DNA of 34,849 nt from Bdellovibrionales bacterium (GCA_050246815.1 JBFWVI010000035.1:1-34849); one strand, 5' to 3'. Positions 1-15,507 are shown, numbered from the stretch's first letter. Translations and numbers: made by a program. Notes: generated by a model from the sequence alone, not told the origin.

Positions 1-3000
1 TTTTTATATTCATCGACAAATTTATCGCGAATTTCACGGTCTGGTTGCGGATTCAGTGTCATGAATAAATTCAAATTGCGCACAGGAATGTCCACAATTT
101 CTTTGCGTTCGTTCATCCGATGCACACGCAGCATCCCGCCCGGGGCTTCAAAAAAGCCCTGCATGAACTGCAGAAACCGCTTGCGGACTTCGGGTGAGCC
201 TTTGTGTGCATCATCAATCAACACAAAACCGCGTAGGCCCTGAGGCAACGCTAAAAAGTTCTCCAGGTGCTGCAAGGCCTTGTCGACGCTCAGGCGTCCC
301 GGATTGGCAGGATCTTCTTTTTCTAAAAGTGTGCCCAAATTGATGATGAACGCGGACGCCTGGTCATCGTTGGGTTTGCTGAAGTCGTAAAGTTTTAGTC
401 CCATGTATTCGATCAATTTTTTGAACAGGAAGGTTTTACCTGTGGAGGTGCTGCCATACAAAATCGTCGAGCTTGGCACGGGACGGCCGTCATCAGCCCC
501 TTTGGTTTGTGAGGTGACGGTTTCGAGCACTTGACGTTTCAATTCGGTGGGGCCTTCGTAACCACGTTCCTGCAGGCCGATCGCGGCGCGCTCGGGGTCT
601 TTGAGTTTGAGCAAAGGATCATCTTTGGTCAAAATTTCAAAGCTCAGAGGCATGTTGAACACCCGTCGATACAAGCGCTCAAAAAAGAAGCTGTCAATAC
701 GGCGCTCTTGCCGTAAGCGCGAGTCTTCGGTCAACTGGCGGCGAAGCTCCAGGTAAGCTTTCAAGAAGGCGTTGGTCGGCTCTTGATTTAAACCGCGGGC
801 AATATGTTCCACCCGGTTGACCATCATGCCTACCAATTGGCGGCGGGCTTCGGCGTCGTTGTAGTTCTTGTGGTCGAAGGTGTAGCCAAGGCCTGCAATT
901 TTGCTATTGTTGAACAGCTCATCGATTAATTTTTGACGGGTTTCTTCTGAAGGAACTTCTAAATGTTCGATCGCGAATTGCTTTTCAATGTCGACAAAGC
1001 GTTGTTCGAACTCAGTGTCGGTGCGCATTTGAGCCAGCTCTTGTTCCGAAGCAAAGATCATCATCGGGATTTGTTCTGGTGCATCTTGCTTGATATCCCA
1101 AGACTTGGTTTTTTGCGGCTGTACTTTTCGTCCTTCGGTGGTCAGCCACCACATTAAGTGGGGAACTTGCCGCGAAGTGATGCTGGAATTGGCTTGGTCA
1201 TCGTCCGCCAAGCCACTGCTTGCGGTTTTTCCCATGGCGGGGTCGCGAACTGAAAAGCTGCCGGTCGGGCCAGACACGGACAAAGGCCGGCCCGCTTTAA
1301 GTATATCAGACATGTCGCCCATCAAAACGGGGCGGCGACTGCGCAGAGCTCCGCGCATGGCCTCGAAGTTTTCGGCGATTAATTCTTGGCTGAGATTGGT
1401 CTGATTGACTTGAAACAGGGCCAAATCAAAGTTTGCGTGATTCCATGGGCCTAGAACGGCTTTGGTGTCCGTGGCCCAACGTGCCAGGACCAGGCGACGA
1501 ACCAGGGGTTTTAGCTCTTCCGGCACCACAACCAAACGATGTTTTGCGGGCACATTTTTATTAGCAGCTTCCAAGAGGATCTTTTCAAGATTCGGAAACA
1601 CATGGTACTCATCCGCCGAAATAGGAGCCTGCGAGGCTTTGACCACTTCTTCTGTGGCTTTGCCGGAATCTGGGTTCCAAACACTCCACGTTGAGGTCAA
1701 GAACTGCGAGTTCACTTCAAATGAGTTGAAAACACCCGCATTGGTTTCATCTTCGTAATTGTTTTGTAGCGCGCGCCATTCTGCGGGAGTGGCAATGATC
1801 AACATCGGGACACGGTTGCCGGTTTTGGTTTTTGAACGAAAGTGTTTCAGGGGCAAGTGGTCACCTTCACTCGCCAGCACCATCATCATCGAAGTTTTAA
1901 ACGAGACGTCGTCGCCGTCCTCTTCGCCTTCGCCGTCTGCGTCTGACTCGGTCGCGGTCTCGCCGTTTTCGATGACGACTGCAGTTTTACCACGACGCCC
2001 GCTTGTTGCTTCGCTTTCATCGGCCTTGTCATCGTCTTTGTCGTTGCCGTTTTCGTTATTCTCGTTGTTTTCTTCACTGTCCTCGGTGTCATTGGACTTT
2101 TGCGTGGCCAGCCGCTCAACTTCGATATTCTGGGCTTGAAGCATATCGCCTAAGTTGGCGTAAAGAAGGTTGCGGCCAGCTCCGTGCTTGGCGATTTTGT
2201 CGATCTCGTCGCGCATTTCTTTATCGCCGACTTTCGGATCAAGAGCGAAGAGAGTGAAATTTTGGTTGTTCAATGACCAAAAGCCCTGTTTGCGAAGCAG
2301 TTGTTTCACGATGGTGCGCAGGAAGGTCTGCTTGTGAGCCTCTTCCACCAAAACAACCTCGTGGAACGAGGGGCCACGCTCTTGCGCACGCTGTTCCAGG
2401 AAGGTTTCAAATTGTGGGAACAGAATCTTTTCTTTGCCTTTTTTTACTTTTTCATCCGTGCTTTTTTCGCCTGCGGTCCAAAGACTCTTTTGTTGAGGGA
2501 ATGAGTCCTCTAAATCACTCGTGTCCACGACGATCCAGCGGCTCATGGAGCGATAAAGGCTTTCATAGTTGTCATCATCGGCCGGCTCACCGTGTCGTAA
2601 CATAATCCTGCGGCCAGGTTGGTTGGGATACAAAGCCTCTGCTCCGCCTAAAGAAAAGCGAGCCACTTTGAAATTGCGGTCATGACGTTCTTTGCCGGGA
2701 GTCAAAATCCAATAGGATTCTCCTGGAGTATCCCACACCAGACGATGGCGAATTTGATCAGGGCGAACTTCTTCGCGCTCGATCCAACTTTGCGAAACAA
2801 GCTGTATGCGATTGTTTGCCGTGATGTTTTGACCTGTGGTCAAATCAAAGTTGACGGCGTAAACCCCGCCGCTTTTTTCTTTGGCCCGGCTTTCTTTACC
2901 TTTGGCGGCCTTGAAGAATAGCAGCAAAGTGGCGTTCAGGCTTCGGGACTTGCGGCCTGTGATAATCTTAGCGCCAACAAGACGTTCAATTGGCCCCGGA

Positions 3001-5027
3001 ATATCAACTCTAGTCACGCCAGCCGTCATTTCAAGCGTGCCTCCGGTTCCGGCGTAAAGCAGAATAGAAAATTTATTTTCCGGCAGTTTTTTCCCGGGCT
3101 CGGGGTTGTAAGCATAAGCGGAAACCACAAACATAGGTGGTTTATCCGGCCCGGCTTTGTCGCGAATTGTTTTTGAGTCCAGGGTTGCCTTGGCTCGTTT
3201 GTCGTTTTCGGGTTTCAGGATTTCGGCTGGAACAAAATTGATCTCGATCTTGGGGTCATTGTGCGGGTTGGGGATGCGGTGGTAATAAAAACCTGTCTGA
3301 GATTGTTTAACGCCGGTCGGATTGTAGCGACGGTGTTCAAGTTGCCCCTCGATCAAATCAAGGGTCTGAAGGGCGTTCAAATAGGTTTGTCGCACAGTTT
3401 CTGAGCTTCTGGTCGCATTGATATCGAGCAAAGGCGTGGTGAGATTTTCCATTTTGGTGCGGCGGCGCTGGACTTTTTCCGAAGACGAGACGTCGTCAAA
3501 CAAAACGGCACCCGTCGGGATGCCATCATCGGCATCCGTTTTCACCACGATACGGGCATTGAGCTCTTTGGTGCTCATCAGGCGTCTGTTGAGGGCCAAT
3601 CGGCGTTCGAACTTCACGACGCCATCGCGTTCTTCGCACAGGATCACATCCGTTTGTGCGCCGGAATCTCGCGTCGTGTGTGAGATGAAAAAGTAATGTC
3701 GGATAATTCGCGTTCCTTCAAGCGGTGCTTTTGTATGCACGGCTTGGATTTGTCGGAAGTCTGCCGGCAAGAGGGTTGAGATGTCGACCACGGAAATATA
3801 CTTATCGCTGTAATCGCCCTGAAATAAAATTTTTGAACGTCCATCGACCACCGCGATCATCGCCGGGTTTTCCTCAACATCAGACACAATGGGGTAAACG
3901 CGGTAGGCCTTAGTGTGTTCATCGTAATCCACCCGGCCTTGGGTTGTGGCTTGGGTGTTCGGTTTGATGGTGTCGTCCGGGTCGACTTGGGGGTTTCGAA
4001 TCACTAGGCTTGAGCCTATGCCGCCCGAAGTGCTGATGGGATTGGTCAGTTGAAATATACCCAACGGATTTCGCGACAACATAGCATGGGGCAATTGATC
4101 GAACACCACGCGATTTTGGATCATGGAGTAATAGGGAATGGTGGCTTGGCGCTGCGCCTCGGCTTCTCGCTGGGCGGCAGTTTTTTTGCTGCCGGCGACT
4201 TCTTTGCGGTCTTTTTTGACTCTTTTGTAAACACTTTCGATGTTGCTACGCCATTCACGCAAAATGCGGTCATCATCAGGCAGGCGCTGCATGTAGTGAA
4301 GTAAGTGCGCCGGGGACAAAACTTTGTCCCTCGCTTCATCATGCATCAACTGCAGTAATTCTTTGTTGGTGTAGAAGTCGTAGTCGACAACGACCGGCTG
4401 GCCGATTGTTTCAAGAACTCCCGCTGCATCTTGGCTGGTCGGTCTTTTGAGCATCAAAGCGATGGTGATACCGGGGCCAAACGGGTTGGCCTGCCTCAGC
4501 GAAATTAAGAACAGCTCTCCTTGCGGGGCCAAGTTGTGCTGGGCCATGGACACGTCGTTCACATTGGTGATCAGCGCAAGCGGTACGTTGCGGCGGTTTA
4601 AAATATCGACGACCGGGTTTTGCTTGGAGCCAAGAACAATTTTGCTGTCTTGCCGGTTCGACTTGGTTTTATTCGAAAAAACAATCATCTTGCCATCAAC
4701 AACAGCAAAGGATTCCGCGCGGCCGGTGTAGCGGTGCAGGTCCGCTAGGGCAAAAACACCATTAAAACCGCGGCTGGCGCCCAGAACCTGTCCCTTAATT
4801 AATAACGTTGCTTTATCCTGACCTCGGACCAAAGCGTGAATGCCGGGTTCAAGGCTAGAGCTTGCGTTGCCCGAGGACGTTTTGTAGGCGACCACATAAA
4901 GATCGACAGCGTTGTGTCCGCCACGCACTGTCAGCTCGGCGACACCTTCTGCATAGACCAAATGACACGCCGCACAGGCAAAGAGCGCAAGAGTCCCGAG
5001 CCACTTTTTTAAAAGGTTCACAGCCAT
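1..5027 (-). CDS. Giant signal-peptide-bearing AAA+ ATPase (Clp/Hsp100-like C-terminal region), >1675 aa, 3' end outside the window
   Basis: Translated by hand: open from ATG 5027 (RBS AGGAG at 5040-5036) to the window edge with no stop. N-terminus MAVNLLKKWLGTLALFACAACHLVYA-E looks like a Sec signal. Walker A GSTSTGKT (455-432), Walker B FVLIDDAH (~230-205), sensor-1-like LFMTLN (~70-52). Absent from the ORF track. Confidence 0.9.
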   Translation of the reverse strand, partial: MAVNLLKKWLGTLALFACAACHLVYAEGVAELTVRGGHNAVDLYVVAYKTSSGNASSSLEPGIHALVRGQDKATLLIKGQVLGASRGFNGVFALADLHRYTGRAESFAVVDGKMIVFSNKTKSNRQDSKIVLGSKQNPVVDILNRRNVPLALITNVNDVSMAQHNLAPQGELFLISLRQANPFGPGITIALMLKRPTSQDAAGVLETIGQPVVVDYDFYTNKELLQLMHDEARDKVLSPAHLLHYMQRLPDDDRILREWRSNIESVYKRVKKDRKEVAGSKKTAAQREAEAQRQATIPYYSMIQNRVVFDQLPHAMLSRNPLGIFQLTNPISTSGGIGSSLVIRNPQVDPDDTIKPNTQATTQGRVDYDEHTKAYRVYPIVSDVEENPAMIAVVDGRSKILFQGDYSDKYISVVDISTLLPADFRQIQAVHTKAPLEGTRIIRHYFFISHTTRDSGAQTDVILCEERDGVVKFERRLALNRRLMSTKELNARIVVKTDADDGIPTGAVLFDDVSSSEKVQRRRTKMENLTTPLLDINATRSSETVRQTYLNALQTLDLIEGQLEHRRYNPTGVKQSQTGFYYHRIPNPHNDPKIEINFVPAEILKPENDKRAKATLDSKTIRDKAGPDKPPMFVVSAYAYNPEPGKKLPENKFSILLYAGTGGTLEMTAGVTRVDIPGPIERLVGAKIITGRKSRSLNATLLLFFKAAKGKESRAKEKSGGVYAVNFDLTTGQNITANNRIQLVSQSWIEREEVRPDQIRHRLVWDTPGESYWILTPGKERHDRNFKVARFSLGGAEALYPNQPGRRIMLRHGEPADDDNYESLYRSMSRWIVVDTSDLEDSFPQQKSLWTAGEKSTDEKVKKGKEKILFPQFETFLEQRAQERGPSFHEVVLVEEAHKQTFLRTIVKQLLRKQGFWSLNNQNFTLFALDPKVGDKEMRDEIDKIAKHGAGRNLLYANLGDMLQAQNIEVERLATQKSNDTEDSEENNENNENGNDKDDDKADESEATSGRRGKTAVVIENGETATESDADGEGEEDGDDVSFKTSMMMVLASEGDHLPLKHFRSKTKTGNRVPMLIIATPAEWRALQNNYEDETNAGVFNSFEVNSQFLTSTWSVWNPDSGKATEEVVKASQAPISADEYHVFPNLEKILLEAANKNVPAKHRLVVVPEELKPLVRRLVLARWATDTKAVLGPWNHANFDLALFQVNQTNLSQELIAENFEAMRGALRSRRPVLMGDMSDILKAGRPLSVSGPTGSFSVRDPAMGKTASSGLADDDQANSSITSRQVPHLMWWLTTEGRKVQPQKTKSWDIKQDAPEQIPMMIFASEQELAQMRTDTEFEQRFVDIEKQFAIEHLEVPSEETRQKLIDELFNNSKIAGLGYTFDHKNYNDAEARRQLVGMMVNRVEHIARGLNQEPTNAFLKAYLELRRQLTEDSRLRQERRIDSFFFERLYRRVFNMPLSFEILTKDDPLLKLKDPERAAIGLQERGYEGPTELKRQVLETVTSQTKGADDGRPVPSSTILYGSTSTGKTFLFKKLIEYMGLKLYDFSKPNDDQASAFIINLGTLLEKEDPANPGRLSVDKALQHLENFLALPQGLRGFVLIDDAHKGSPEVRKRFLQFMQGFFEAPGGMLRVHRMNERKEIVDIPVRNLNLFMTLNPQPDREIRDKFVDEYK

Positions 5028-5046
5028 TTTGGTCACTCCTCAGTCA

Positions 5047-5083
5047 ACTTTGGATGGGGTGGAGGGGCCACCTCATCCAAAGT
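5047..5083 (-). other. Intergenic 16-bp hairpin between the two AAA genes
   Basis: ACTTTGGATGGGGTGG (5047-5062) / CCACCTCATCCAAAGT (5068-5083), one mismatch, 5-nt loop. No U-tract downstream on the minus strand. Confidence 0.65.
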
Positions 5084-5101
5084 GAATCACAAACAAAAAA
5101 C

Positions 5102-7606
5102 TTACTGTTGAACGCGTCTCTGCGATTTGCGCAGCTCGTTTTGAATTGCTCGCACAAAGCCCAGCGCTTGGCGGAAGGCATCTTTGTTGTAGCCAAAACG
5201 TTCCATGCTGGATTCGGCTTGCTGGGCGCGGGTACGGGTGGCGTCGGTGACGCTTTTGCCCTCAAAATAATCCAGCAGCTCGCTCATGGCCGACGTGCTC
5301 AGCTCTTTTTGCAGCAAGAAGTTTTCAACCGCATGACGCAGTGGCAAGAAGTCTTCGCCACCGCGACGATTTTGCATAAAGCTTTGGATGCGGCCCAAAT
5401 TGAAGGGCTCGTTGTTCAGCTTTTCATAGATGCGGCCGATTTCTTTAAGACGTTCATGATCGATCATGCGGCGTTCGCCGCCTTCATCTGACCATTCCTG
5501 GCCTTCAGGGTCTGAAGCCAGCACACGAATTTCTTCGACGATTTCATTGTACAGTTTGTCGACCAAGCCCGAGTCGCCGCCGACGATAGCTTGAATGTCC
5601 TGGGTCAAGAAGGGCAAGATGAAATCCACTTTGATTTTGTTGTGAATCAACATCCAGCGGGCGGCGATATCATTTTTTAAACCGTCGAATTCGCCCTTGG
5701 TCACCATTTCGGCCAACATGCGGTCGATGGTCACCGGTGTCACGGCGCTCAAGCCATGGGTTTCGGCGTATTCAAGAGCTTTAAGTAACCAGCGTTTCGC
5801 ATCGCGAGCGGTGATGCCGTTTTCACCTTCACGCAACAAAAACATGATATCACGCAAGTCGCGCAGCACGCCGGCTTGCGGAACGATTTCGCGGCGGATG
5901 ACTTTCAGGCGCATGGTGACATCTTGGAAGACATTCATGTTGCCGACGATGTCAGCGAACTTGTTGGGGAAAGCCTGCAGTTTTTTAACATCGGTTTCAA
6001 TGCGGGTTCCCGCGGTCGTCAATCCCAACAGCTCCAAAGCACGAGGCGCGATCAGGATACGTGTGCCTTTTTTGGGTGTGTAATAGATGGCGAAGCGTTT
6101 TTCAGGGCTCAACAAGTTGCCACGCTCGTCTGGCTCGGGAAATAGCTCCGAGAGTTTTGCGGGCTGCAATTGAGCATCGGGCTCAGTCAATGAGCGCATG
6201 TGGAAGGTGCCGCCCAACTTGCGATCCGCGGCCATATAGAGCGCGGTTTCGGCCGTCAATGTTGGGTGAATCGGCTGGCGCATAGGTTCTTTCATGAAGC
6301 GGTTCAAAAGGGCTTTTGTGCCGCCCTCTTCGCGCGCGGCGGCCACACTTTCGTCGTTGCTCACGGCGACGGGCAGGGTGTTCAAGCGCATTGCGGGCGC
6401 GCCGTTGGCTTCAACCACACCACTTTGGATGATTTTAAGTGAGAAGTTTTGCATTTCTGCTTTGTTACGGAAAAATTCGTCAAACGCGCCCAGTCGGCCG
6501 TGCAGTTGCATCACTTTGCCGTCAAAAGCGAAGGACAAGGGATTTGATTTACCCAAGACGATGCTCAACATCGGGTTTTCGCTGCCGTAAAGCATGGCGG
6601 GATCTGGGTGATCACCTTGGTAATCGACGGTGATCGGATCACGATTCGGATCGATGTAGTTTCGCACGATCACGACGTGTTTCTTCAAGATATCGATGTA
6701 TTCTTGTTCGGTGATATCGCTTTTTTTCTTTTGGCGTTGATAGTGCTGGACCAGCTCCAGCACGATGCGCTCGACTTGCGGGTGCATATGGGTCCAGGGG
6801 CGGGGTGAATAGCCGATAAGGTCTTCGACTCTGGATGCGGCCATTTCAACGACGCGATCACGCACATCGGGCGCAAGATCAAGCAAAGTCAGTGGAGAAT
6901 CCGCAGGCGTGTTGACCAGATAGGTTCCGGTGTCGGGGTTAACGATCGGCGAAAGTGCCGGAATGTGCTCAAGTCCAACAAATTTAAAAGTGTATTGGTA
7001 ACTATCCTGGGCGTGAGCGGATTGGTGGGCAATCATGCGGTCGGTGATGGTCAAAAATTCAGTTTTGCCGGTACCTGCGGGGCCAGTTAACAGTAATGAG
7101 TTGTCCTTTGCCTGTCCACTCGCGCGAAGCTTGGCGTAACCAACGAAACGCTGAATCGCCTCGTACTGGCCGATGATCGCCGCGCCGCCGGCTTCATCTA
7201 CACCGGACGAGAAGATCGGGTAGTAATCATGCTCGACGATCGGATAGGTGGGATCTTTGATTTTTCGTGATTTGTACTTCAAGATCGCTTGATAAGCGAT
7301 TTGGTTCAGGTCCATGACGATGGTCGGAAACCGAACCGCCAGATTATTTTCTGGATTGGGATCAACCAAGACGTCAAAGGGCATTTCTTCGAAGCGGGCG
7401 CTTAAATTGCTGAGTTTGGCATTGCTGACCAACTTGCCGCTGGGCTGGGACTCGAGCATGGCGTCGCACGCGCCCTCACTTGTCGTTGTCGAGCCCTTTT
7501 TCTCGCCGGCTTTTCCCCTCGATGACACTGCACCGGCCAACGCCGGATTGATCAAAGCCAAAGTCGCAACGAAGGCGACCGTTCGGCTAAAAATGCGTGC
7601 TCCCAT
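5102..7606 (-). CDS. PrkA/YeaG-family AAA+ protein with N-terminal signal peptide
   Basis: IIGQYEAIQRFVGY...LLLTGPAGTGKT (Walker A), GAFDEFF (Walker B), VAVSND (sensor 1), ALLNR (Arg finger) and EGENGITAR occur in the PrkA motif order. N-terminus MGARIFSRTVAFVATLALINPALA-G. RBS GAGGGAGAG upstream. Confidence 0.8.
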   Translation of the reverse strand: MGARIFSRTVAFVATLALINPALAGAVSSRGKAGEKKGSTTTSEGACDAMLESQPSGKLVSNAKLSNLSARFEEMPFDVLVDPNPENNLAVRFPTIVMDLNQIAYQAILKYKSRKIKDPTYPIVEHDYYPIFSSGVDEAGGAAIIGQYEAIQRFVGYAKLRASGQAKDNSLLLTGPAGTGKTEFLTITDRMIAHQSAHAQDSYQYTFKFVGLEHIPALSPIVNPDTGTYLVNTPADSPLTLLDLAPDVRDRVVEMAASRVEDLIGYSPRPWTHMHPQVERIVLELVQHYQRQKKKSDITEQEYIDILKKHVVIVRNYIDPNRDPITVDYQGDHPDPAMLYGSENPMLSIVLGKSNPLSFAFDGKVMQLHGRLGAFDEFFRNKAEMQNFSLKIIQSGVVEANGAPAMRLNTLPVAVSNDESVAAAREEGGTKALLNRFMKEPMRQPIHPTLTAETALYMAADRKLGGTFHMRSLTEPDAQLQPAKLSELFPEPDERGNLLSPEKRFAIYYTPKKGTRILIAPRALELLGLTTAGTRIETDVKKLQAFPNKFADIVGNMNVFQDVTMRLKVIRREIVPQAGVLRDLRDIMFLLREGENGITARDAKRWLLKALEYAETHGLSAVTPVTIDRMLAEMVTKGEFDGLKNDIAARWMLIHNKIKVDFILPFLTQDIQAIVGGDSGLVDKLYNEIVEEIRVLASDPEGQEWSDEGGERRMIDHERLKEIGRIYEKLNNEPFNLGRIQSFMQNRRGGEDFLPLRHAVENFLLQKELSTSAMSELLDYFEGKSVTDATRTRAQQAESSMERFGYNKDAFRQALGFVRAIQNELRKSQRRVQQ

Positions 7607-7721
7607 TTTGCTCTCCCTCTTCCGCAGAAGTATGTTTACTTTTTAGTCACAGTCTTCCCCCTCTTTCATGTTGCGATCTCCCCAGACCGCTTCATCCCCA
7701 TTTATATTGAACAGGTGGCAA

Positions 7722-12943: not shown

Positions 12944-12999
12944 AGGGTTCAATATGGCATGGGTTGCCTATCCCCACAATCCTGTTTATAGTTCCCTGC

Positions 13000-13650
13000 A
13001 TGAATCCCAGCGATGTGAAGGCCGCGATGGTCGCTTCTTGCCGACGACTTTATGACCGCAATTGTTTGGCGGCTGCGGATGGCAATATTTCTGTGCGTTT
13101 AAGTGATGAACAGATATTGATCACACCTTCGGGCGTGGCCAAGGCTTTTATGAATCCCGGGCAGATGGCTGTTATGACTTTGAGCGGTCAGGTGCTGCAA
13201 GGTGAGCCCTCGGGTGAGCGACAAATGCATCTGGCCGTGTACCGAAATTGTCCCAATGCCAGGGCTGTGGTGCATGCCCATCCCCCGCACGCGATCGCCT
13301 GGTCTGTGATTGAACCTCGTCATAGCGAACTGCCCAATGATATTTTATCTGAAGTTGTTTTGGCGGCAGGGCGCATTCCGATCGTGCCTTATGCACGTCC
13401 CACGACTGTTGATATGGGGACGCAGCTTGAACCTTTTTTACCGAACCATCGTCTGATGATTCTGGAGCGCCATGGCGCTTTGGCTTGGGGTGAGTCACTT
13501 GAGGAAGCCACCAATGGTTTGGAGCGCTTGGAGCATTCGGCGCAAATTCTGTGGTTGGCAAGTTGTTTGGGGCCAATGCGCCCATTGCCCGCGGCTGAGT
13601 TCGAAGGGTTGCAAAAAATGCGCGCGAAAATCGGGGAGCGCTTACTGTGA
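13000..13650 (+). CDS. Class II aldolase/adducin family; probable methylthio-/5-deoxy-ribulose-1-phosphate aldolase (Ald2-like)
   Basis: DGNISVR, ITPSG, PSGERQMH, VVHAHP, RHGALAWG. Coupled to mtnA. Start ATG 13000. Confidence 0.75.
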   Translation: MNPSDVKAAMVASCRRLYDRNCLAAADGNISVRLSDEQILITPSGVAKAFMNPGQMAVMTLSGQVLQGEPSGERQMHLAVYRNCPNARAVVHAHPPHAIAWSVIEPRHSELPNDILSEVVLAAGRIPIVPYARPTTVDMGTQLEPFLPNHRLMILERHGALAWGESLEEATNGLERLEHSAQILWLASCLGPMRPLPAAEFEGLQKMRAKIGERLL

Positions 13651-14657
13651 AGCCTCTGATTTCGATGGCGCTTAAGTCTTCATCTGAAGGCTTATTTATT
13701 TTAGATCAAAGTCTGCTGCCCAAAGCAGAAAAATGGCTCAAGATTCAAGGTCCGGATGAAATGATTGAGGCAATCAAAGCTTTGCGCGTGCGTGGCGCTC
13801 CTTTGATCGGCGTTGCGGCGGCCTTGACTGTGGCCCATTATTCTTTAACAGAAGCTCGGCCCGAGCGCTGGTTAGACGCCATCAAGGCACTACGTGAAGC
13901 TCGGCCGACTGCGGTCAATTTGATGAAGGCGATGGACCGTCTGCGCCATTTGGTTGAAGCGCGCTTGTCAGGTGAAGAGATTCGCGCAGAGGCTGAAGAA
14001 ATTTATCTCGAAGATCAAAAATTGTGTGATCGTATCGCCGAACAGGGCGTCCAAGTTTTGCAAGACGGCGACGCGGTTTTAACCCATTGTAACACCGGCG
14101 GGTTGGCCACTGCGGGTGTCGGTACCGCTTTAGGTGTCATTCAAAAAGCCCATCAAATGGGGCGTCAGATTCAAGTTTGGGTCGATGAAACTAGGCCCTT
14201 ATTGCAAGGGGCGCGCTTGACCGCCTGGGAATTGGAAAAGCTCGAAATTCCCTACACTTTGATTTGCGACAATATGGCCGCAATGTTGATGGCACAAGGT
14301 CGGGTTCACAAAATTATCGTAGGCTCGGACCGAATTGCGGCCAACGGAGACTTCGCCAATAAGATCGGAACTTACAGTCTTGCGGTGAATGCGCAATATC
14401 ACCGTGTGCCCTTTTATGTGGCCGCTCCGCGCACAACGGTGGACCCAGACTGTCTAACCGGGGCGCAAATTCCGATCGAGGAGCGAGACGGACAAGAAGT
14501 GCGCGGTTTTGATCAAACTCAGTGGGCGCCGAACAGCTCGGTTTTCAATCCTGCTTTCGATGTAACACCTGCGCTGTTGGTGCACGGCTGGATTCTGGAC
14601 GATGGCTTTTTTAAACCTGTCGATGTCAAAGCGGGTGTCTTTCAAAGGAGCACATAA
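13647..14657 (+). CDS. mtnA: S-methyl-5-thioribose-1-phosphate isomerase
   Basis: LRVRGAPLIG, RPTAVNL, LTHCNTGGLAT, DETRPLLQGARLTAWEL, NKIGTY, NPAFDVTP. Confidence 0.95.
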   Translation: MKPLISMALKSSSEGLFILDQSLLPKAEKWLKIQGPDEMIEAIKALRVRGAPLIGVAAALTVAHYSLTEARPERWLDAIKALREARPTAVNLMKAMDRLRHLVEARLSGEEIRAEAEEIYLEDQKLCDRIAEQGVQVLQDGDAVLTHCNTGGLATAGVGTALGVIQKAHQMGRQIQVWVDETRPLLQGARLTAWELEKLEIPYTLICDNMAAMLMAQGRVHKIIVGSDRIAANGDFANKIGTYSLAVNAQYHRVPFYVAAPRTTVDPDCLTGAQIPIEERDGQEVRGFDQTQWAPNSSVFNPAFDVTPALLVHGWILDDGFFKPVDVKAGVFQRST

Positions 14658-14658
14658 T

Positions 14659-15507
14659 ATGTGGGCGATTATCGGCGGTTCCGGCTTTGAAAAGTTTGAT
14701 AGTTTTGAAACGGTTGCAGCACTAGAAAGACAAACTCCTTTTGGTCAGGCTTCAACAGGGCTGAAAAAGGTCAGGGTCGGTCAAGAAGAGTGTTTGTTTT
14801 TGTCCCGTCACGGTGAAAACCACGAGCGGCTGCCCAGTGAAGTGAATTACCGAGCGAATATTTTCGCGCTGAAGCAGCATGGGGCCAAAGCCATTCTCTC
14901 GTTTTCGGCGGTCGGAAGCTTGCGCCAGGAGTTAAGACCCGGAGATATGGTGATTCCTACTCAATACATTGACCGCACAAAGGGTGTCCGTCGCCCCAGT
15001 TTCTGCGGCGATGGTGTTGTAGGGCATGTGAGTTTGGCCAAACCGGTGTGTGAAACCATGGCCGCGCGGACTTTGCAGCTGGCCGAAAGCCAGGATTGGC
15101 AGAGCCATTTGGGGCAAACTTATGTTTGCATCGAAGGCCCGTATTTTTCGACAATGGCTGAAAGCCACCATTATCGCGAGATCAAAGCAGATATTATCGG
15201 CATGACTAACTTTCCCGAATTTGCGTTGGCTCGTGAGGCCGGTTTAAGTTATTTGCCCTGCTGTTTTGTCACGGATTATGACTGTTGGGACACTTCGCGT
15301 CCCCATGTCACTTTGGATGAGGTGCTGACCGTCATGCGCCAGAACAATCGCAAGGCATTCGCTATGGCACAATCCGTATTGTCTCAATCCGAGACGCTGC
15401 TTAAAGATTGTGATTGCGGGACGCAAGGTTTGGCGGCGGGACTGATGACGCCGTTTGAATCTTTGTCGCCCGAGACAAAAGCATGGCTTGAAGTGTTGAT
15501 GCGTTAG
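14659..15507 (+). CDS. mtnP: MTA/5'-deoxyadenosine phosphorylase (MTAP family)
   Basis: AIIGGSG, TPFG, FLSRHG, VNYRANIFALK, IEGPYFST, IGMTNFPE, VTDYDCW. RBS AAGGAG before ATG 14659. Confidence 0.92.
   Translation: MWAIIGGSGFEKFDSFETVAALERQTPFGQASTGLKKVRVGQEECLFLSRHGENHERLPSEVNYRANIFALKQHGAKAILSFSAVGSLRQELRPGDMVIPTQYIDRTKGVRRPSFCGDGVVGHVSLAKPVCETMAARTLQLAESQDWQSHLGQTYVCIEGPYFSTMAESHHYREIKADIIGMTNFPEFALAREAGLSYLPCCFVTDYDCWDTSRPHVTLDEVLTVMRQNNRKAFAMAQSVLSQSETLLKDCDCGTQGLAAGLMTPFESLSPETKAWLEVLMR

Follow-up and report, generated by a model that had tools for sequence, protein, structure and literature searches.

An operon of predicted Sec-exported PrkA/YeaG-like and giant AAA+ proteins in a Bdellovibrionales genome, and a terminal cysteine tag shared with other exported proteins

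The DNA described here, called the window, is bases 1 to 34,849 of contig C35 from a Bdellovibrionales genome (accession GCA_050246815.1, contig JBFWVI010000035.1; genome G000, 3.4 Mb, completeness 99.1%). At its left end are two genes on the minus strand, one for a PrkA/YeaG-like AAA+ ATPase (gene 1, product P0001) and one for a giant AAA+ protein (gene 2). These are most likely part of a three-gene operon, which at the loci read has the order PrkA/YeaG-like ATPase, giant AAA+ protein and SpoVR-YeaH (DUF444) fusion, all with signal-like N-termini. Sec export of the operon proteins is well supported by sequence comparisons. In addition, a cysteine tag is found near one terminus of these proteins and of many others predicted to be exported; this shared tag was not in the original prediction made for this DNA. 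Across 13 families of a single phylum the catalytic residues are kept together with the export signals, though ATP-driven machines are unexpected past the inner membrane. Either an undescribed route brings proteins into other cells' cytoplasm, or these bacteria can use ATP beyond their own cytoplasm.

The two genes are located as follows.

5102..7606, minus strand: gene 1 (P0001), PrkA/YeaG-like AAA+ ATPase with signal peptide, 834 amino acids (aa)
3..5027, minus strand: gene 2, giant AAA+ protein with signal peptide, 1675 aa visible, the rest beyond the contig end

Gene 1 encodes a divergent PrkA

A sequence search with P0001 among 1.84 billion representatives gave 195 clusters at E<=0.001, 139 of them at 1e-30. 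Because of these 195 clusters and the conserved gene order, gene 1 is not a chance frame. Homologues of at least 760 aa number 122 among the 150 listed clusters; two that seem N-terminally cut were excluded, and the remaining 120 sequences form the family alignment. Pfam models AAA_PrkA and PrkA match P0001 below threshold (15.9 and 19.2 bits, curated cut-off 25), and a PDB profile search with P0001 by itself gave no match. The family profile matches PDB entry 9xip ("serine protein kinase") at E 2.7e-45, with the next family at 3e-13 and Clp proteins far behind. It also matches the canonical PrkA of G000 at E 2.8e-60, in two stretches that correspond to the AAA+ and C-terminal domains. In the pairwise alignment of P0001 with this canonical PrkA, 114/661 aligned residues are identical (17%).

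The catalytic positions of gene 1 are listed with their conservation; the sensor and arginine finger residues were mapped onto canonical PrkA.

7061..7084, minus strand: Walker A GPAGTGKT (G175-T182), K181 in 120/120
6476..6481, minus strand: Walker B D376-E377 (AFDE), each 115/120
6356-6358, minus strand: sensor-1 N417, invariant (n=120)
6299-6301, minus strand: arginine finger R436, invariant (n=120)
5804-5806, minus strand: sensor-2-like R601, invariant (n=120)

These residues are kept despite a mean column identity of only 20% in the 120-sequence alignment. By its sequence, gene 1 belongs to a divergent PrkA subfamily in which ATP binding and cleavage are under selection. Six additional cysteines, including two CxxC pairs, are present in a subgroup of 13-19 PrkA-like homologues (alignment positions 232, 275/278, 621 and 807/810), which may form a metal site or disulfides.

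Export signals

Signal peptides were called by a home-made heuristic that is liberal, with 902/3069 genes of G000 called. In both window proteins the N-terminus combines a basic n-region with an uncharged h-region and has an A-x-A-like site.

7535..7606, minus strand: Sec signal peptide predicted by the heuristic for gene 1 (residues 1-24, A-L-A site)
4950..5027, minus strand: Sec signal peptide predicted by the heuristic for gene 2 (residues 1-26)

Two cysteines within the gene 2 signal peptide are not kept in the orthologue from genome G002. Among the 122 gene 1 homologues, 93 pass the heuristic from the annotated start; when a later start is allowed, an h-region lies ahead of the conserved cysteine in 112/120, with an A-x-A-like site in 110/112. 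Conservation of a signal peptide joined to an AAA+ domain, which the original prediction had named as a check, is supported by the heuristic. The median 19-residue hydrophobicity is 1.68 in gene 1 homologues and 1.65 in 21 envelope controls (p 0.60). The charge n-terminal to the h-region is net +1 or more in 99/112 homologues, and the median charge after it is -1. A Met between the h-region and 25 residues past the tag is missing in 77/112.

Cysteine content was also compared. Past residue 60 it is 0.139% in the PrkA-like family; tagged proteins, outside the tag, have 0.225%. The values are higher in signal-peptide proteins without the tag (0.82%) and in cytoplasmic proteins (0.97%). The canonical PrkA, YeaH and SpoVR frames of G000 have 4, 2 and 6 cysteines, respectively. 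We infer that such depletion is as expected for cytosol-type folds that cross an oxidising space.

Lipoprotein processing by signal peptidase II was considered and rejected. There is no lipobox, and the tag cysteine is 23 residues past A-L-A in P0001 and C-terminal in the giants; moreover, an N-terminal tag is found in 0/115 lipoprotein-like proteins.

The giant AAA+ protein of gene 2

Complete homologues of gene 2 have about 1780-2330 aa and carry the cysteine tag at the C-terminus. The visible part of gene 2 is divided as follows.

2448..4949, minus strand: N-terminal region (residues 27-860), family-conserved, no database match
1623..2420, minus strand: repeat A (residues 870-1135), without P-loop, with a long Asp/Glu-rich insert
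828..1610, minus strand: repeat B (residues 1140-1400), without P-loop
3..590, minus strand: AAA+ module of Clp-D2-like type, truncated at the contig end; Pfam AAA_22 above cut-off
432-455, minus strand: Walker A GSTSTGKT of the D2-like module, intact
210-215, minus strand: DD-type Walker B of the D2-like module, DD and not DE in 16/16

The first ~830 residues have no match in Pfam or PDB, and the best ESM Atlas score of 0.79 is in the chance range. Repeats A and B are mutually homologous (hhalign probability 99.8, 16 aligned members), and partial extra matches in genomes G098 and G126 suggest that the repeat number varies among giants. An assignment of the two repeats to Clp D1 was tried and rejected, the likeness being by eye only and the hhalign probability under 1.

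The last module aligns with ClpA/ClpB D2 at an hhalign probability of 95.6 and E 1.1e-8, from a two-sequence profile. Its K, T, D, D and N positions are each conserved in 16/16, the last being sensor-1 N1659 in gene 2. PDB profile matches for the giant are weak and intermixed with dynein, and the NCBIfam ClpA model gives 12.1 bits against a cut-off of 993. Judged from these alignments, the gene 2 product is Clp-type in its single intact ATPase module at most, and is not a Clp. The original prediction of a Clp/Hsp100-type second protein therefore holds for the last module and not for the rest. It had also given both proteins intact Walker A and B motifs, which is correct for gene 1 and for the Walker A of gene 2; the Walker B of gene 2 is DD, and its upstream repeats have no P-loop.

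Operon order and the SpoVR-YeaH fusion

G000 has a second copy of both window genes (contigs C143 and C73), after which comes a SpoVR-DUF444 fusion with a signal peptide. Another such fusion is found on C131, the end of which shares 127 nucleotides (nt) with the start of C143. In G002, of the same genus, a giant 62% identical to gene 2 residues 780-1674 stands directly before a fusion that shares 65% identity with the C131 fusion. On this orthology, given by the gene order and identities in G002, the window operon most likely runs on into C131, with both operons in tandem. The original prediction held that the operon may continue beyond the left edge, possibly with a YeaH- or SpoVR-like signal-peptide gene, and the fusion on C131 agrees with it. 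Contig C39 carries an ordinary prkA-yeaH-spoVR operon whose products lack signal peptides; the housekeeping copy is retained.

Among 10 loci from near relatives, six have the three genes in order and two are cut at a contig edge inside the giant; the remaining two are one broken operon copy and one locus with gene 1 alone (G009). The broken copy is a second operon copy in its genome (L028, G006:C2). Thirteen further loci comprise nine with three genes, two cut inside the giant and two (G315 and G100) in which gene 1 is directly before the fusion. At locus L119 (G250) the giant is split over two frames, and at L024:5917-7200 (G034) a tagged signal-peptide protein with one Clp-D2-like domain is just upstream of the operon.

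Both SpoVR and DUF444 are above the Pfam cut-offs in the fusion gene. Invariant residues of its SpoVR domain (19 and 18 sequences) include an upstream Glu, two His (HxxxH) and the Glu of N/H-E-G, and its YeaH part retains the vWA D-x-S-x-S motif. The canonical SpoVR of G000 (C39:9603-12287, L006) has the same E / HxxxH / NEG set, so the candidate metal site is a feature of SpoVR proteins as a family. A search of the ESM Atlas with canonical SpoVR returned SpoVR clusters only. From these residues, the SpoVR domain may be a candidate metallopeptidase.

A terminal cysteine tag

The tag of gene 1 is located as follows.

7454..7468, minus strand: tag C-D-x-x-L (C47-L51); C in 113/120, L in 88/120; C47 is the sole cysteine

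The fusion has an invariant cysteine at the equivalent N-terminal place. In G000, C-[D/E]-x-x-L at either end is found in 56/714 signal-peptide proteins where about 3 are expected, and never at both ends; there are 41 N-terminal tags (first 45 mature residues) vs 1.7 expected and 15 C-terminal tags (last 30 residues) vs 1.0, expected counts being taken from the interior motif density and the pattern having been picked after examples were seen. Two looser tag patterns and a second gene model show the same trend, and 1135 cytoplasmic proteins show no tag excess. An odd number of cysteines is present in 44/53 tagged and 133/498 untagged proteins; by these counts the tag cysteine is mostly unpaired.

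The strict tag is found in 0/85 proteins of a 398-kb sample of genome G132 (family f10), a genome without the operon. The looser C-x-x-x-[L/F] occurs in the same sample at 9 N-termini vs 2.5 expected, three of which are clearly alike, the signal peptide being followed in them by C-[E/R]-x-[V/I]-F (L123:12690, L126:1254 and L133:11894). This appears to be a lineage variant of the tag, in a small sample.

Proteins that carry the tag

A scan for further tagged proteins yielded 64 (57 calls, minus 2 operon proteins and 2 false calls, plus 11 picked by eye out of other classes), with 90 of 93 untagged neighbours as controls. Twenty of the 64 have a Pfam match, all to enzymes or chaperones, and NCBIfam added nothing above cut-off for 47 tagged proteins. 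By our own classification, envelope housekeeping proteins make up 0/64 of the tagged set vs 15/90 of the controls (p 0.0002). Cytosol-type proteins with the tag include an AAA+ protein with an M41 peptidase, a Clp-like ATPase, a P450, a GT2, a DnaJ and a haem N-demethylase.

The tag is C-terminal in 7/7 members of a two-module Clp-like ATPase family (C43:19969-22695, which is L152; L153-L157; L111:563-3196). These mostly have signal-like N-termini and display the D1 pore loop, and a G-F/G-Y loop is seen by eye at the ClpP-docking position in 5/7. The sole ClpP of G000 is without a signal peptide.

Individual frames may also be mentioned. C20:20931-24278 (L063:7132-10479, plus strand) has a signal peptide, two P-loops, an M41 (FtsH-type) domain with HExxH and a C-terminal tag, and lacks membrane segments; its product is apparently an exported ATP-dependent protease. 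The tagged signal-peptide P450, GT2, DnaJ (with HPD) and haem N-demethylase-like proteins are at L079:9230-10672, L080:1940-3634, L106:15496-16398 and L065:13110-14243, respectively. C34:19272-21656 encodes a signal-peptide Clp-like ATPase that keeps the GYVG loop and is untagged. C39:745-3765 is a frame of 1007 aa with a signal-like segment and a tag, the body of which we take to be reminiscent of the PEP-synthase/PPDK nucleotide-binding domain.

Distribution in Bdellovibrionota

With the family profile, and three candidates scored per genome, the gene 1 family was found in 35/301 genomes of this phylum (G000 included) at E<1e-90, over 13 families. Most other genomes of the phylum have canonical PrkA alone, near 1e-42. 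The giant is found in 32/301 genomes, with 12 relatives in the query alignment and 19 outside it. All 32 genomes with a giant are within the 35 and hold the PrkA-like gene; thus the giant and the PrkA-like gene form one unit, and the originally proposed linkage of the two genes is conserved.

Locus and contig setting

The two genes are co-oriented with a gap of 74 nt, and both start with CAAA-ATG-G behind a purine-rich Shine-Dalgarno-like stretch, as first described. The gene 2 frame begins with ATG at 5027 and is open to position 3. The listing of open reading frames has an alternative GTG start at 5036, but this overlaps the Shine-Dalgarno sequence, and ATG 5027 is therefore the likely start.

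7611..7619, minus strand: Shine-Dalgarno-like stretch of gene 1, from sequence
5047..5083, minus strand: stem-loop in the 74-nt gap, -26.9 kcal/mol, z -3.45, 0/200 shuffles equally stable
5036-5041, minus strand: GAGGAG Shine-Dalgarno of gene 2, directly after the stem-loop

The stem-loop could act as a stabiliser of the gene 1 message or as a tuner of read-through. No sigma-70 promoter was found for the operon, and terminator-like sites occur only at chance frequency.

The left edge of the window is a contig end. Two 133-nt variants span position 1 in both sequencing runs examined, which are possibly the source data of the assembly, and the edge is a probable strain bubble in the assembly; gene 2 is not broken. 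The left end has no overlap with any other contig end of G000, and the remainder of gene 2 is absent from the assembly. Recent transfer of the operon was considered and rejected, the GC content at third codon positions being 0.555-0.629 in six operon genes and 0.566 +/- 0.049 in the genome. Window DNA is present in landfill metagenomes, all from one study. No RNA dataset is among the listed datasets that contain it, and no phage record matches P0001.

Elsewhere in the window, class II aldolase, IF-2B-family and phosphorylase genes are side by side at 12964-15507 (plus strand), an arrangement typical of methionine salvage and ordinary.

Possible function

The reading we prefer, with slightly less than even confidence, is that the module is delivered into prey and drives bulk ATP-dependent protein breakdown there. 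All three operon proteins would pass the inner membrane via Sec. A second stage of export or hand-over is then the probable purpose of the terminal C-[D/E]-x-x-L tag, which ~60 unrelated exported proteins have in common with them. Since the catalytic ATPase residues are invariant or nearly so at 20% identity, an ATP-containing site would be needed; the destination would most likely be the prey cytoplasm, or a prey cell with a breached inner membrane and ATP present. There the PrkA-like ring may unfold or remodel proteins, with the YeaH vWA domain as a putative adaptor and the SpoVR domain as a possible peptidase. The giant would contribute a second ATPase module and probably substrate choice or a scaffold. 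The net outcome would be starvation-type bulk proteolysis turned on the prey, with release of amino acids. For a predator able to export such a module, the greatest benefit would come from using it inside prey. None of the findings that the original prediction had named as contrary to it appeared.

YeaG-dependent, largely non-specific loss of cytoplasmic proteins is reported for carbon-starved E. coli (PMC13684143) and ATP-dependent casein breakdown for B. subtilis PrkA (PMC9512850), and yeaG, yeaH and ycgB cofit in six bacteria (10.1101/072470; also 10.64898/2026.07.20.739708). A model for B. exovorus has direct access to the prey cytoplasm with the prey inner membrane breached (PMC12428579), and evidence on prey-digesting enzymes and secretion systems is limited (PMC12428579; also PMC13689555 and PMC12546842). 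The secretion genes of G000 include four secretins, eight ATPases of pilus or type II secretion system (T2SS) type and one TrbI-type gene; no type VI secretion sheath gene was found in this genome.

Several points weigh against delivery into prey for bulk proteolysis. We know of no route for Sec-exported cargo into the prey cytoplasm in this group. There is no cultured carrier or expression record. The P0001 N-terminus is near four anchored controls, with a 19-residue hydrophobicity of 1.85 vs 1.78-2.29 and a net charge of +2 after the h-region, and because of this the heuristic alone cannot part signal from anchor. No GYVG pore loop, IGF/IGL ClpP-docking loop or M-domain was found in the giant; the SpoVR motif is without the catalytic Glu of HExxH, and the fusion gave weak vWA matches and no peptidase in the PDB profile search. 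Cytosol-type domains are present in 6/64 tagged proteins vs 8/90 controls, no enrichment at face value, and most of the eight control cases look like anchored proteins or mis-called starts, a post hoc judgement. The tag is also found on hydrolases that need no cytosol, namely S41, trypsin, S9, M16, trehalase and alpha/beta hydrolases. The PrkA-like family was not found in 266/301 genomes of the phylum, and for family f10 the count of genomes with it is 0/35; f10 is probably the family of cultured Bdellovibrio, and absence there argues that the operon is not a core predation tool.

Alternative explanations should also be considered. The same export and tag evidence would fit delivery into prey for a specific job in place of bulk degradation: the module might be a remodeller or a decoy that, for instance, disables or rewires the YeaG-YeaH-YcgB starvation response of the prey or dismantles chosen complexes; a giant without pore loop or ClpP-docking loop would suit this, as would the AAA+/vWA pairing, a MoxR pattern known for specific remodelling (PMC9976466). 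However, catalytic or metal-site residues are kept in all three parts, and mixed rings of a decoy with prey protein are unlikely at 17% identity to canonical PrkA. We consider this explanation unlikely. Improbable as well, in our judgement, is work in the bacterium's own periplasm or at its surface on leaked or exported ATP, in envelope turnover or digestion of imported proteins, with the lone cysteine forming a disulfide to a carrier or partners. A Sec signal by itself leads to the periplasm, usual periplasmic hydrolases are among the tagged set and the cysteine is unpaired, but a single cysteine on ~60 unrelated proteins fits common handling better than partner pairing. The tagged P450, GT2 and DnaJ need NAD(P)H and a redox partner, nucleotide sugars or DnaK, and ClpP is without a signal peptide, yet 5/7 tagged Clp-like ATPases keep the docking-position loop. 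The periplasm is widely described as being without ATP, whereas an ATP transport system for Bdellovibrio is reported in a title cited in PMC13689555; the accessible part of PMC6335424 gives no periplasmic ATP levels.

A target in a eukaryotic host or prey (a protist or animal cell), with the small-genome carriers as possible symbionts, we regard as very unlikely. G009, a single contig of 1.6 Mb, has the PrkA-like gene alone, and 44/64 tagged proteins are without Pfam match, which is usual for host effectors; against this, the module is of bacterial type with no eukaryote-like domain found in the operon, and G000 has 3.4 Mb, four secretins and eight pilus/T2SS-type ATPases. There is, at the lowest end, only a slim chance that nothing is exported, the N-termini being anchors of cytoplasmic ATPases or translation starting downstream. 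The borderline N-terminus of P0001, a 19-residue window >1.9 in 26/112 homologues and the retention of M98 in 88/120 would speak for it. However, M98 falls within the part homologous to PrkA and is downstream of the conserved tag, the charge layout is opposite to that of an N-out anchor, cysteine is depleted, and the layout is common to three different proteins and to bona fide secreted hydrolases.

Delivery into prey with bulk protein breakdown is kept as the preferred reading. A broader proposal, which we hold as tentative and rather doubtful, is a two-step route: after Sec export, dozens of cytosol-type enzymes would be recognised by a terminal C-x-x-x-L/F tag and passed on into the cytoplasm of the prey. 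The operon would be the clearest cargo, a starvation-proteolysis machine (PrkA as unfoldase, YeaH as adaptor, SpoVR as metallopeptidase and the giant AAA+ protein as helper) that digests the prey proteome from within, using prey ATP, and SpoVR/YcgB would be the missing peptidase of YeaG-dependent degradation. Tag-directed delivery into prey, if true, would be categorically new. The operon bears on the way in which the prey cytoplasm is digested by predatory bacteria. The tag is a simple handle, in that a reporter could be altered at one residue, in a genus with a seemingly related tag, and the SpoVR-YeaH fusion with its invariant residues points to testable chemistry for the widespread YeaG-YeaH-YcgB module.

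Comparison with known systems

In the literature covered, which included few subscription papers and no supplements, neither an exported PrkA-YeaH-SpoVR operon nor the cysteine tag was found to be described. The closest system is the PrkA/YeaG(SpdA)-YeaH(DUF444)-YcgB/SpoVR module, with the same three domains in a single operon. The exported version differs in having a signal peptide and cysteine tag on each part and an inserted giant, in being additional to the housekeeping operon, and in the fusion of SpoVR then YeaH. Its PrkA-like protein is 17% identical to the canonical one and has a plain DE Walker B in place of F-V-E-V.

In comparison with Class I Clp/Hsp100 proteins (ClpA, ClpB, ClpC and Hsp104), the last module of the giant is D2-like and follows one to three repeats in the D1 place. 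Those proteins have two P-loop modules, whereas the giant has one P-loop, a DD Walker B and no GYVG or IGF/IGL loop; it is about twice as long, with an 830-residue N-terminal region without match and a signal peptide. An AAA+ protein encoded with a vWA partner is likewise found in MoxR AAA+/vWA pairs (NorQ-NorD, RavA-ViaA) and in the MoxR-vWA conflict systems reportedly described by Kaur et al. (PMC7159879). The known MoxR/vWA pairs are cytoplasmic. Here the ATPase is of PrkA type, the partner is a SpoVR-YeaH fusion, and export signals are on all parts.

Torsins are likewise AAA+ ATPases that a signal sequence directs into the Sec pathway, in their case to the lumen of the endoplasmic reticulum; they differ in being eukaryotic and of an unrelated family, with ATP in that lumen. 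Labels for two-step secretion include the lipobox, the type IX secretion system's C-terminal domain and MYXO-CTERM. Proteins with these labels, like those of the operon, have a Sec signal and a second terminal label. The cysteine tag differs from them in that its Cys is not at +1, there is no lipobox and no membrane segment follows, and in that it is found at either end of the protein.

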